Below, one piece after another: positions 20,732-26,439 of a stretch of 64,000 nt of DNA. The notes beneath the pieces are model-generated. The model saw only the letters and a program-made list of their open reading frames with translations, was not told the DNA's origin and made no database searches. Position 1 is the stretch's first letter. Every line of letters starts with the position of its first letter. The stretch lies in NCBI RefSeq assembly GCF_055900595.2, contig NZ_CM148325.1; one strand, written 5' to 3'. A program made the position numbers and the translations under genes.

Positions 20732-22036
20732 TTAATGCAACTTCAAACGTGGACGGATAACGCGGTTAATACTCCCCACCAGCATCATTAATCCGGTTTT
20801 AAAGTAACCATGCAGCGCAATCTGATGCATTCTGTATAGCGAGATGTATACAAAGCGCGCAATTCGTCCTTCAATCATCATTGAGCCGCGCGTCAGGTTA
20901 CCCATCAGGCTACCGACGGTGGAGAAGTTCGACAGCGATACCAGAGAACCGTGATCTTTATACTGATAATTTTTCAGCGGCTTACCGTTCATCTGCGCCA
21001 GAATGTTGTTCATTGCGCAGGTTGCCATCTGGTGTGCGGCCTGCGCACGCGGCGGAACAAAGCCCCCTTCCGGACGCGGGCATGACGCGCAGTCGCCAAT
21101 AGCGTATATGTCTGGATCGCGAGTGGTTTGCAGCGTCGGTTCCACCACCAGCTGGTTGATACGGTTGGTTTCAAGACCACCGATATCTTTCAGGAAGTCT
21201 GGCGCTTTGATCCCGGCTGCCCACACCATCAGATCAGCCTCAATATATTCACCATCTTTAGTGTGCAGGCCGCCTTCATCAGCGCTGGTGACCATGGTTT
21301 GCGTCAGCACGCGAACGCCAAGTTTCGTTAACTCATTATGGGCCGCAGCAGAGATACGTGGCGGTAATGCAGGCAAAATACGTTCGCCCGCTTCTACCAG
21401 CGTTACGTTCAGGGCTTCGTTGGTCAGGCCTTTGTAACCATAGCTGTGCAGTTGCTTGACCGCGTTGTGCAATTCTGCGGAGAGTTCTACACCCGTCGCG
21501 CCGCCGCCGACAATCGCAATGTTCACTTTACCATTCGCGCCCAGGTTGGCGGAGTATTTCAGGAACAGATTCAGCATCTCCTGGTGGAAACGACGCGCCT
21601 GATGCGGGTTATCGAGGAAAATGCAGTTCTCTTTGACTCCTGGCGTATTGAAATCGTTAGAGGTGCTGCCCAACGCCATTACCAGGGTGTCATAGGCGAT
21701 TTTACGTTCCGGAACCAGCAGTTCACCTTTCTCGTCGCGCAGTTCTGCAATAGTGATTGTTTTCGCTTCACGATCGATATCAATGACGGAACCCAGCTGG
21801 AACTGGAAACCATGATTGCGCGCATGGGCCAGATAGCTCAACGCATCGACGCCTTCATCAAGCGAGCCAGTCGCCACTTCGTGCAGCAGCGGTTTCCACA
21901 AGTGGCTGTGGTTACGATCGACCAGCGTAATTTTGGCTTTTTTCTTGCGTCCCAGCTTATGTCCCAGCTGTGTCGCCATTTCCAGCCCACCAGCACCGCC
22001 GCCGACAATCACAATTTTTTTCAATGGCGTAGTCAA
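20732..22036 (-). CDS. ndh: NADH dehydrogenase II (NDH-2, non-proton-pumping)
   Basis: ORF 20732..22063; the 434-aa form (M)[16 protein letters not shown]... needs a TTG start at 22036 (gggg RBS-like 8 nt upstream); Rossmann GxGxxG motifs. Confidence 0.93.
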
Positions 22037-22297
22037 CGTGACCCCCTTAAATTTATTAACCAATTGTTAACTAATAGTTATTAATATAGCTCTTAATTAA
22101 CAATAGGTTACAGCAATGAAAATGTTCTTCGTTATTGAGAATAACATGAATGGTGCATTGGTCATACCAAAATTGATGTTAATCAAGTTTTGTTGCTGAA
22201 AAGATAGTCTGATTTACCGGATGAGATCAAAAAATACAGCTTATTGTTTATTATTTAAACGAATTCAGGAGGGTGAGACGTATATGGAGGGCGTTTG

Positions 22298-22435
22298 GTA
22301 GGCCTGATAAGACGCGAGCGGCGTCGCATCAGGCACATTGCCAGTGTCGGATGCGGCGTGAACGCCCTATCCGACCTACAGAATTTACAGAATCTGGAAC
22401 GCATCAGGTATCAGCAAGGTTACCTGATGCGACGA
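22298..22435. repeat. Cluster of REP-like palindromes, ndh-ycfP intergenic
   Basis: gtaggcctgataagacgcgagcggcgtcgcatcaggc, tgtcggatgcggcgtgaacgccctatccgacctac, catcaggta...tacctgatg. Confidence 0.65.
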
Positions 22436-22441
22436 GGGCAT

Positions 22442-22984
22442 TTAACCGAGGGTTTTGAACGCTTTAATGCGCTGCAAATGCGGGGAGATATTCTTGAATT
22501 TGTGCGTCTGCTCTTCGTCCCAGACAATCTCGTAATAATGATGCAACTCTTCAGATGTCCGCTGGCTGTTAAGCGCTTCATCGTTACGCGACAAAATCAC
22601 CAGACAACGATCGCGATTCTTTTCGCGGAAGTTGGTCACACACTTAGTGGCAATATCGGCATACTCTTCCGGGCGATCAATCTTGCCTTCCATGTTCTCA
22701 TAAGGGAACAAATTAGGATTGAAGATCACCTGGCGGATATCGCAAAGAAAACCAATTCGCTCCGCCCAGTATCCGCCCAGACCAACGCCGCATATCAGCG
22801 GACGCTCATCGACGTTTAGTTGCAGCATTTTGTCCACTTCTTTGAGCAGATGCTGCATATCATGTTTCGGATGCCGCGTACTGTAGCTTATCAAGCGTAC
22901 ATCCGGGTCAATAAACTGCAATTGTAAGACTTTCTCGTGGTTACCCGGACTGTTAGAGTCAAAACCGTGTAAATAGATAATCAT
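22442..22984 (-). CDS. ycfP: Alpha/beta-hydrolase (UPF0227) protein YcfP
   Basis: ORF 22442..23041; ATG at 22984 with gaggaag RBS gives [19 protein letters not shown]... 180 aa. Confidence 0.92.
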
Positions 22985-23006
22985 CGCTTCCTCACATAAG
23001 CCAGGG

Positions 23007-24032
23007 TTAGTGACCTGCTTTCTCTTCCTGCCAGCGTTCATGTAACTGATTCAGACGGGCGCTGATCTCTTTCCAGCGAGCCGAGTCCATCAGTTCCTGT
23101 CGCGAAAATGAACCTTTATGATACAAACGTGTAACACGTTCTGCCTTGATCGGTGACAGATTATCTAACACGCTGACGGCCCCTTTACGATTATTGCAGA
23201 CCAGGATCATATCGCAACCCGCATCCAGTGATGCCTGCCCGCGTTCGGCATAACTGCCCATAATCGCGGCACCTTCCATCGATAAATCGTCGGAGAAAAT
23301 CACGCCGTCAAAACCCAGTTCCTGGCGTAAAACGGTTTTCAGCCAGTGGGGAGAACCACTCGCCGGACGCGGATCTACATCACTGTAGATCACATGCGCA
23401 GGCATAATGGCGTCGAGTTTATTTTCACGGATTAATGCGCTGAATACCGACATATCCTTGGCACGAATTTCCGCTTGTGGACGAGGGTCACGCGGCGTCT
23501 CTTTGTGTGAGTCTGCCGTTACCGCACCATGCCCTGGGAAGTGTTTACCGGTGGTTTTCATTCCGGCTTCATGCATGCCATCAATAAAGCTGCTGGCGAT
23601 TGCCAGGGCTTTTTCGGGATCGGCATGATAAGAACGCTCACCAATCGCCGCGCTGATATGCCCGACGTCCAGCACTGGCGCAAAGCTGATATCAATATCC
23701 ATAGCAATCATTTCGCTGGCCATCAACCAACCTGCCTCTTGCGCCAGTTTTCCGCCTTCTTCCATTCCCAACAGCGCAGCAAATGATTGTGCCGCTGGCA
23801 AGCGGGTAAAACCTTCACGAAAACGCTGCACACGCCCACCTTCCTGATCCACCGCCACCACCAGATGATTGCGCGAAGCTGCACGGATCTGGCGCACCAG
23901 TTCGCGTAACTGGGCAGGATCGTGATAGTTACGCGTAAAGAGAATCAGCCCTCCTACCAGCGGATGCGCCAATATTTCACGCTCTTCCGCGTCCAGTTCG
24001 TAACCTTCAACATCCAACATTACTGGACCCAC
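23007..24032 (-). CDS. nagZ: Beta-N-acetylhexosaminidase NagZ (peptidoglycan recycling)
   Basis: 341 aa, (M)[31 protein letters not shown]...; GTG start. Confidence 0.95.
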
Positions 24033-24867: not shown

Positions 24868-25489
24868 CTTTACCTGACCAGATAATTTCGCCCGTCTGCA
24901 CCAGCATCAGCTGCATTTGTAGGGTCGGAGCGTTAACGTTGCCAGAGGCGCTGGAGTACAGCACGTAATGAGCGCCGACATTGCGGGCAATGCCTATGGC
25001 TTTACTACGGGTACCTAAACTGTCCTGCGGCGACAAACCTAACTGTTGCTTCGCCATCGACAGCTGCTGGGCGGAAACCAGGGTAAATTTACCGTTATTA
25101 GCCAGCGCATTTCGCAGCGTTTCGGTCGCTTCTGCGGCATTCAGCGAACCGTTAGTACGGTTGTTAACGCTATCAACCAGAAGGACGCTACCCGCAGTCA
25201 CCCCGTCAGCCCCAAGCATCTTACTGACCATCGGCTGCATTGCGCCATTCCAGTCATAATGGCGAATATGCGGTGCAGGCGGTGCAGTTTGATCTTCGTG
25301 CTCAATTGGGCCTGGCTGCTGCGGGATCGTCGGCACCGAGGGCACTGTGGGGACAGGCTGTTGTGGCTCGGCTGGTTGTTCCGGCGCTGGTTTCACTTCT
25401 TCTACCGGTGCAGGTTCACGTTGCCCCACACACCCGGCGAGAAACATCGCCAGCGCGGTAATCAAGGCGTAGCGACTCATTTTTGTCAT
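24848..25489 (-). CDS. lpoB: Penicillin-binding protein 1B activator lipoprotein LpoB (YcfM)
   Basis: ORF from TTG 25492; ATG 25489 gives [20 protein letters not shown] (lipobox) with Pro-rich linker; 213 aa. Confidence 0.93.
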
Positions 25490-25502
25490 CAAGATTCACC
25501 CC

Positions 25503-25880
25503 TTACAAATATAGATAAAGTCTGACTTTGTGCGCCCCCAGAAAATTGGCGCTGCCGTACAGCGTTACCGCCGAATGTGCGGGAATGGTAACGCTGCGTG
25601 GCCTTTCCAGAGGATGCATCTCCAGCCCTCTGGCGTCATACCAGTAAAAACGATAATGAACGGTAACGGGTTCTTGCCTTTCGTTATAAAGCGTTGAGGA
25701 TGCTGAAGGTTGAATATCAGACGTCGAAAGGACGGGCTTTTCTGCACTGATGCCCGCAGCCAATAAAGATGACTCCATCACCAGCGATTGCTCATCATTC
25801 ACCGGAATTTCCGGATGTGAACGACAGCCCACCAGCAGTAACAACGCCAGAGACACCAGCCCAAAGCATCCTTTTCTCAT
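25503..25880 (-). CDS. ycfL: Lipoprotein YcfL
   Basis: 125 aa, MRKGCFGLVSLALLLLVGC lipobox signal. Confidence 0.9.
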   Translation of the reverse strand: MRKGCFGLVSLALLLLVGCRSHPEIPVNDEQSLVMESSLLAAGISAEKPVLSTSDIQPSASSTLYNERQEPVTVHYRFYWYDARGLEMHPLERPRSVTIPAHSAVTLYGSANFLGAHKVRLYLYL

Positions 25881-25882
25881 CG

Positions 25883-26242
25883 TTACAGACCTTTATGCGC
25901 CAGCATGGGTCCCAGCGGACGGCCACCCAACAAGTGCATATGGATGTGGTAAACCTCTTGTCCGCCATGGCGGTTGGTGTTCATGATCAGACGATAGCCA
26001 TCTTCGGCAATACCTTCTTGCTCAGCAATTTTTGCCGCTACGGTGATCATGCGTCCCAGCGCCTGCTCATGCTCAGCTGACACGTCGTTCACAGTCGGAA
26101 TGAGGATATTCGGAATGATCAGAATATGCGTTGGCGCTTGCGGCGAAATATCGCGAAACGCCGTTACCAGATCATCCTGGTAGACGATATCAGAGGGGAT
26201 CTCACGACGAATAATTTTGCTGAATATAGTTTCTTCTGCCAC
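25883..26242 (-). CDS. hinT: Purine nucleoside phosphoramidase HinT (HIT family)
   Basis: ORF 25883..26260 (TTG); the 119-aa form (M)[15 protein letters not shown]... needs GTG at 26242; HIT motif HIHMHLLGG. Confidence 0.93.
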
Positions 26243-26439
26243 GACATTTTCCTTTTTCAAATAGCCATGCGTTGCGCCATGCTACGCCGCGCCACACTGC
26301 GAGTATAGAGTATGGTCGAGTTAAACCTGCTCTTTCAACCTTAACTAACGATTTCTTAAGCAAAAAATCGTTTTGCTGCCGTATATATCGCCATTATTCC
26401 CATTTCTGCCTGCGAATGCGCTGAAAAGACTTTCTCTGT

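Follow-up and report, generated by a model that had tools for sequence, protein, structure and literature searches.

The stretch of DNA analysed here (64,000 nucleotides of contig NZ_CM148325.1, assembly GCF_055900595.2; hereafter the window) belongs to a non-K-12 Escherichia coli strain and extends from phoQ to rimJ in reverse orientation relative to K-12. The features in question are the genes that start with GTG or TTG instead of ATG, several of which lie close together between ycfJ and hinT, and the short overlaps between neighbouring genes. All 61 of the 61 K-12 MG1655 coding sequences from phoQ to rimJ align from first to last base onto the window; over positions 20000-27000, several E. 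coli chromosomes match the window with 100% identity and most of 5,425 others match it at 95-99%, and the ndh gene of the window shares 97.4% identity with K-12 ndh. The K-12 MG1655 record served as the curated reference and the NCBI PGAP annotation of non-K-12 strains as the automatic one, including, for the starts named in an earlier note on this DNA, a strain with 100% identity over 20000-27000. The start codon of each gene in the window was taken as the first codon at the K-12-equivalent position in the alignment. Cross-species comparisons cover the loci around ndh in 80 Enterobacteriaceae species and are given as raw counts, uncorrected for shared ancestry. Initiation data were drawn from published K-12 maps, namely the cell-free INRI-seq assay (Table S2) and the Ribo-RET values listed alongside it, and ribosome-binding sites are scored in kcal/mol, with more negative values denoting stronger sites.

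On the minus strand, ndh (NADH dehydrogenase II, 434 amino acids; 20732-22036) starts with TTG at 22036, and bases 1-1305 of the K-12 coding sequence map to 22036-20732. Its ribosome-binding site, AAGGGGGU, scores -11.9 kcal/mol, compared with +1.0 at the TTG upstream (22063), whose frame is interrupted by indels or stops in many species. At the position of the annotated start, 66 of 80 species carry TTG, 7 carry ATG and 6 carry GTG, and both INRI-seq and Ribo-RET are positive at this codon. A UUG initiation codon for E. coli ndh was already described in 1981 (Young et al. 1981, Eur J Biochem 116:165, PubMed 6265208), the title of that paper implying an observed protein N-terminus. The neighbouring gene ycfJ (179 amino acids; 19966-20505, minus strand) maps from K-12 with a GTG start at 20505, preceded by a GGAGG ribosome-binding site of -13.0 kcal/mol (versus +1.3 at the alternative given by the longest open reading frame); the start is GTG in 68 of 76 species, and again both initiation assays are positive.

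Further along the minus strand, nagZ (341 amino acids; 23007-24032) begins with GTG at 24032 within a GUGUG motif, the curated start being also that of the longest open reading frame. Its ribosome-binding site, UAAGGAG, scores -9.3 kcal/mol, the start is GTG in 75 of 80 species with synonymous variation at codons 2-4, and INRI-seq and Ribo-RET are both positive at the GTG. In luciferase fusions of nagZ, initiation occurred at the annotated 3' GUG only (PMC9841429).

The conserved in-frame ATG at codon 5 in each of nagZ and ycfJ could suggest that some of the non-ATG starts are artefactual, with translation truly beginning at Met5 of either gene or, in ldtC, at the ATG at 17731. This is improbable. 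For nagZ and ycfJ, the ribosome-binding site lies 5 nt from the GTG and is too distant from Met5, where the scores fall to -3.1 and +0.3 kcal/mol, respectively; codons 2-4 vary synonymously, as coding sequence would; the nagZ reporter initiates at the annotated GUG; and the footprints lie at the annotated codons. Only ldtC stays a candidate. The ATG after its curated GTG is conserved, and in other genera the GTG is often replaced by a codon that is not a start codon; the difference there would amount to one residue of the signal peptide.

Indeed, the curated start of ldtC (320 amino acids; 17728-18690, plus strand), which is absent from the earlier note, is a GTG at 17728 within an in-frame TTG-GTG-ATG run (17725-17733). 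Across genera, the ATG at 17731 is conserved, and the codon at 17728 is often ATA, GTA, ATT or GTC, so that conservation of GTG 17728 as a start codon across species is not upheld. The GTG has a weak ribosome-binding site (-3.1 kcal/mol) and is positive in the cell-free assay only. A similar ambiguity surrounds lpoB (24848-25492, minus strand), which encodes 213 amino acids from the ATG at 25489 and carries an in-frame TTG at 25492 immediately upstream (25489-25494). A TTG one codon upstream occurs in 61 of 78 species, 46 of which have no ATG at the E. coli position, and it looks as if the TTG is the ancestral start. In both INRI-seq and Ribo-RET, a peak lies slightly upstream of the annotated lpoB ATG and is assigned to an ATC at -6. 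For lpoB and ldtC alike, such shifts would alter just the signal peptide, which is presumably cleaved off.

The next gene, thiK (274 amino acids; 24043-24867, minus strand), starts with GTG at 24867, 20 nt within the end of lpoB. This GTG is the first start codon following an in-frame stop, its ribosome-binding site is weak (-4.9 kcal/mol), and neither an INRI-seq nor a Ribo-RET peak is present for it in the published table. It is kept in 76 of 78 species, the other two having a TTG two codons downstream. The middle T of the GTG is the third, synonymous base of an LpoB glycine codon and is thus free to change for LpoB; that the GTG persists nonetheless supports it as a working start of thiK.

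The gene hinT (119 amino acids; 25883-26242, minus strand) maps from K-12 with a GTG start at 26242. Its AAGGA ribosome-binding site scores -5.6 kcal/mol, compared with -1.5 at the TTG at 26260, and Ribo-RET and INRI-seq are both positive. The start occupies one position across species, as GTG in 21 of 77 (Escherichia, Salmonella and Citrobacter) and as ATG in the other 56. An initiation-derived N-terminal peptide of HinT was detected in N-terminal proteomics data (PMC13245402); when the supplement of that study was queried by gene name and b-number, hinT was the only one of these genes present. The remaining members of the run start with ATG: ycfL (125 amino acids; 25503-25880, minus strand), which maps from K-12, and ycfP (180 amino acids; 22442-22984, minus strand), the final gene of the close-packed hinT-ycfP run, whose start is ATG in 79 of 80 species. 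Between ycfP and ndh lie 405 nt, within which Rfam places naRNA4 (a nucleoid-associated RNA derived from a repeat) at 22301-22376 on the minus strand.

Outside this run, yceM (307 amino acids; 61807-62730, minus strand) starts with GTG at 62730, 1 nt past the yceH stop, with a ribosome-binding site of -7.3 kcal/mol (versus -2.6 at the TTG at 62763), and is positive in INRI-seq and negative in Ribo-RET. The start of flgI (365 amino acids; 52167-53264, minus strand), at 53264, is the second of two neighbouring GTGs; a GAGG site lies 4 nt from the second and just 1 nt from the first, and INRI-seq is positive, whereas Ribo-RET is not. In the same flagellar region, flgE (55756-56961, minus strand) encodes 401 amino acids, compared with 402 in K-12, owing to a 3-nt gap. 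Two further non-ATG starts are absent from the earlier note. One is the GTG of fabF at 37610 (413 amino acids; 36369-37610, minus strand), positive in both INRI-seq and Ribo-RET. The other is the TTG of plsX at 41928 (356 amino acids; 40858-41928, minus strand), which is negative in both. Residues 4-10 of PlsX align to the N-terminal strand of Bacillus subtilis PlsX (PDB 1VI1), placing the start upstream of Met11, where the TTG is the sole candidate.

The earlier note had named TTG or GTG starts for ndh (22036), ycfJ (20505), hinT (26242), yceM (62730) and flgI (53264), and GTG starts for nagZ and thiK. The first five coincide exactly with the K-12 record and with PGAP, as do the GTGs of nagZ and thiK at 24032 and 24867. 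Its contention that these genes need non-ATG starts is borne out by better ribosome-binding sites, conservation of position and, for most of them, initiation data. The ribosome-binding site is clearly better than at alternative in-frame starts for ndh, ycfJ, hinT, yceM, nagZ and fabF, and the position of the start is conserved, varying among start codons only, in ndh, ycfJ, hinT, nagZ and thiK. What did not hold was its expectation that automatic annotation mis-sets starts in this region, because PGAP equals the K-12 record at every named start; the sole disagreement between the two in the window concerns potB, where PGAP looks right. A rule choosing the longest open reading frame would move 22 of the 61 mapped starts.

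The gene potB (285 amino acids; 4855-5712, plus strand) is called by PGAP from the ATG at 4855, which makes it overlap potA over 17 nt (4855-4871) and potC over 4 nt (5709-5712), whereas the K-12 record begins it at the GTG at 4885 (275 amino acids), leaving a 13-nt gap after potA. In the published Ribo-RET analysis, the annotated potB start lacks a peak and a strong peak lies at an upstream in-frame start, from which the authors proposed a mis-annotation (Meydan et al. 2019, bioRxiv 10.1101/520783). INRI-seq is 0 at the GTG, and the ribosome-binding site scores -10.9 kcal/mol at the ATG and -0.9 at the GTG. The MKNTSKFQ residues are invariant in the compared Escherichia, Salmonella, Citrobacter and Pluralibacter sequences, and the DNA encoding the extra 10 residues shows few changes, all synonymous or conservative, and no indels. 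In addition, the transporter complex studied by cryo-electron microscopy was expressed from a clone of the K-12 potABCD operon; PDB 8Y5F uses the 285-residue PotB, and chain 8y5g_B covers residues 7-279, thus starting four residues upstream of the GTG codon.

A true potB start at GTG 4885, which would leave potA and potB without an overlap, would agree with the 275-residue protein of the curated K-12 RefSeq record and with the invariance of this GTG in all five compared sequences. It is very unlikely, given that a ribosome-binding site is absent at the GTG and strong at the ATG, that both initiation assays lack a signal at the annotated start while Ribo-RET peaks upstream of it, that the N-terminal 10 residues are conserved and indel-free, that PGAP uses the ATG, and that the modelled chain begins at residue 7 of the long form. 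Therefore, ATG 4855 is most likely the true start of potB and the K-12 record is probably 10 residues short, and since the evidence favours this ATG, the potA/potB overlap listed in the earlier note is most likely right.

The pot locus offers two further observations. The annotated ATG of potA (3735, plus strand) lacks both a ribosome-binding site (+0.2 kcal/mol) and a peak in INRI-seq or Ribo-RET. An INRI-seq peak in five of five replicates lies at +17 nt, assigned to an out-of-frame ATT, with an in-frame TTG (3753) at +18. In Pluralibacter, a CTG that follows a stop codon stands where E. coli potA has its ATG, and the gene is annotated with the TTG as its start (372 amino acids); the potA gene may thus start on TTG 3753. 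In Enterobacter hormaechei (locus L093), potA is deleted, and this genome is hence uninformative on the potA start. On the chromosome NZ_CP098223, which otherwise equals the window over 20000-27000 (locus L001, 1-5543, corresponding to about 1-5700 of the window), prophage genes, including dicB and genes for an exonuclease, an excisionase and an integrase, replace phoQ-potB directly upstream of potC, whereas the window keeps potABCD intact.

With potB at ATG 4855, nine overlaps of 1-20 nt are present, as the earlier note had listed them. On the plus strand, these are the 17-nt potA/potB overlap, which exists only with this potB start, the 4-nt potB/potC overlap and a 4-nt ATGA between potC and potD (6500-6503). 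On the minus strand, lolC/lolD overlap by 8 nt (11475-11482), lolD/lolE by 1 nt (TAATG, 10781), lpoB/thiK by 20 nt (24848-24867, conserved in the 78 species examined), mltG/tmk by 11 nt (33704-33714), tmk/holB by 4 nt (ATGA, 33073-33076) and flgI/flgJ by 1 nt (52167). They make up 9 of 46 co-directional pairs (20%), or 9 of about 61 gene junctions, compared with about 15% of co-directional pairs in most prokaryote groups. Each downstream start has a ribosome-binding site within the upstream gene, from -3.3 kcal/mol for flgJ to -10.9 kcal/mol for potB.

The overlapping genes are assumed to share one transcript, based on the known operons potABCD, lolCDE and flgB-J and on short spacing. Where the stop of one gene overlaps the start of the next within an operon, the ribosome finishing the first can restart on the second. 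Translational coupling of these pairs is plausible, given their classic geometry; among five native E. coli 4-nt overlaps put to the test elsewhere, four showed coupling and one did not (Huber et al. 2019, PMC6728339). In the cell-free mapping, five of the nine downstream genes (potC, potD, lolD, tmk and flgJ) still initiate when the fragment lacks the upstream gene, which indicates that coupling is not obligatory for them. Independent initiation of lolE, thiK and holB was not detected in this assay. We considered this silence as a sign of coupling and rejected it, because about 29% of all genes in the window are also silent, so that the missing signal at these three genes proves nothing.

Counted at K-12 positions, the starts in the window comprise 49 ATG, 10 GTG and 2 TTG; with potB corrected and the dubious yceQ removed, they comprise 50 ATG, 8 GTG and 2 TTG. 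Non-ATG starts thus number 10 of 60, or 11 of 61 including yceQ (about 17-18%), against an E. coli start usage of 83% AUG, 14% GUG and 3% UUG, that is, 17% non-ATG, and a binomial test found no excess in the window (P = 0.44 for at least 11 of 60). From ycfJ to hinT, five of eight consecutive genes have non-ATG starts, which gives P = 0.005 if this run is fixed in advance. A local enrichment was nevertheless rejected, as 11% of simulated 61-gene windows contain a similar run and a whole genome should hold about 21 of them.

The ribosome-binding sites of the non-ATG genes are stronger, with a median of -7.8 kcal/mol compared with -5.8 for ATG genes (P = 0.03; 10 versus 50 genes). Start-codon identity is also retained beyond that of synonymous sites with the same base within the gene concerned in ndh (83% vs 37%), nagZ (97% vs 64%) and ycfJ (89% vs 48%), and no such excess is seen for hinT. 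As raw counts uncorrected for ancestry, these values give a hint that selection may act on the codon itself. It is possible, though doubtful, that the TTG of ndh and the GTGs of nagZ, ycfJ and thiK are held by codon-level selection, resulting in a translational set-point of these envelope and respiration genes conserved across Enterobacteriaceae.

A further proposal would be that the non-ATG run from ycfJ to hinT constitutes a selected, co-regulated group of envelope and respiration genes, in which weak start codons maintain a low, fixed level of translation or a joint response to initiation-factor levels. The persistence of start-codon identity in ndh, nagZ and ycfJ, the GTG of thiK in 76 of 78 species despite a middle base that is free for lpoB, and the stronger ribosome-binding sites of non-ATG starts in the window would all fit such a group. 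We consider it unlikely. The run is statistically ordinary; hinT has ATG in 56 of 77 species, so that the set as a whole lacks conservation; ndh and ycfJ are separated by 405 and 226 nt, respectively, from the genes upstream of them and are thus probably separate transcription units from hinT-ycfP; and the species counts behind the selection reading are non-independent.

Collectively, these features almost certainly represent the usual arrangement of genes in a familiar region of the E. coli chromosome. A minority of genes initiate on GUG or UUG, which the initiator tRNA reads, albeit less efficiently; the non-ATG starts of the window tend to be paired with stronger ribosome-binding sites, and weak start codons would set low expression levels.

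Several points weigh against this picture. In the published initiation maps, the starts of yceM, flgI and ldtC give a signal in the cell-free assay alone. For thiK and plsX, with negative footprints in both data sets, the starts are deduced from conservation, open reading frame geometry and homology. Footprinting at about 3-nt resolution cannot separate the GTG-GTG of flgI, the TTG-ATG of lpoB or the TTG-GTG-ATG of ldtC, and the cross-species data favour a non-curated codon for ldtC and possibly for lpoB. Moreover, the species counts are phylogenetically non-independent, and the coupling of overlapping genes is something we infer.

Some observations lie apart from the question of starts. Two identical 714-bp IS200-type elements (28776-29489 and 35607-36320) stand in the same orientation, each with a minus-strand tnpA and an Rfam STnc490 match, and flank ptsG-ycfH-holB-tmk-mltG-pabC; neither K-12 nor NZ_CP098223 has the second copy, which is located between pabC and fabF. 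In the potD–cobB interval, the K-12 genes ycfZ and ymfA are absent, and only 213 nt (7547-7759) separate potD from the end of cobB. A 1-nt indel near the 3' end of cobB (7741-7780, minus strand) relative to K-12 yields a protein of 273 amino acids, not 279, and PGAP annotates the same 273-residue form in other strains. The yceQ frame (44727-45047, minus strand) contains an internal stop here, is antisense to the regulatory element in the RNase E 5' untranslated region (Rfam rne5, 44821-45157, plus strand) and lacks an initiation footprint in K-12, so that it is probably not a genuine gene.

Nearly every item described here was known beforehand from the curated record or from publications, and the use of the analysis is that of an annotation check. 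The potB entry of the K-12 reference is probably 10 residues short, and for ldtC, lpoB and possibly potA, cross-species or footprint data place the start one to six codons off the curated site.

Compared with known systems, the GUGUG site of nagZ (PMC9841429) is the same site as in the window, with nothing different, and the UUG start of ndh described by Young et al. (1981) is identical in gene and codon, although the window is from a different strain. General E. coli usage of GUG and UUG (about 14% and 3%) agrees with the 8-9 GTG and 2 TTG among 60-61 starts, the window differing only in its local, non-significant run of five in eight genes. Five of the nine overlaps belong to the classic 4-nt ATGA or 1-nt TAATG/TGATG types considered by Huber et al. 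(2019), whose tested pairs include neither those of the window nor the class of 8, 11, 17 and 20 nt. For potB, the correction proposed by Meydan et al. (2019) likewise places initiation at the upstream in-frame ATG and not at the annotated start; the present analysis adds support from the ribosome-binding-site energy, sequence conservation, the start chosen by PGAP and the residues built in the cryo-electron microscopy chain.

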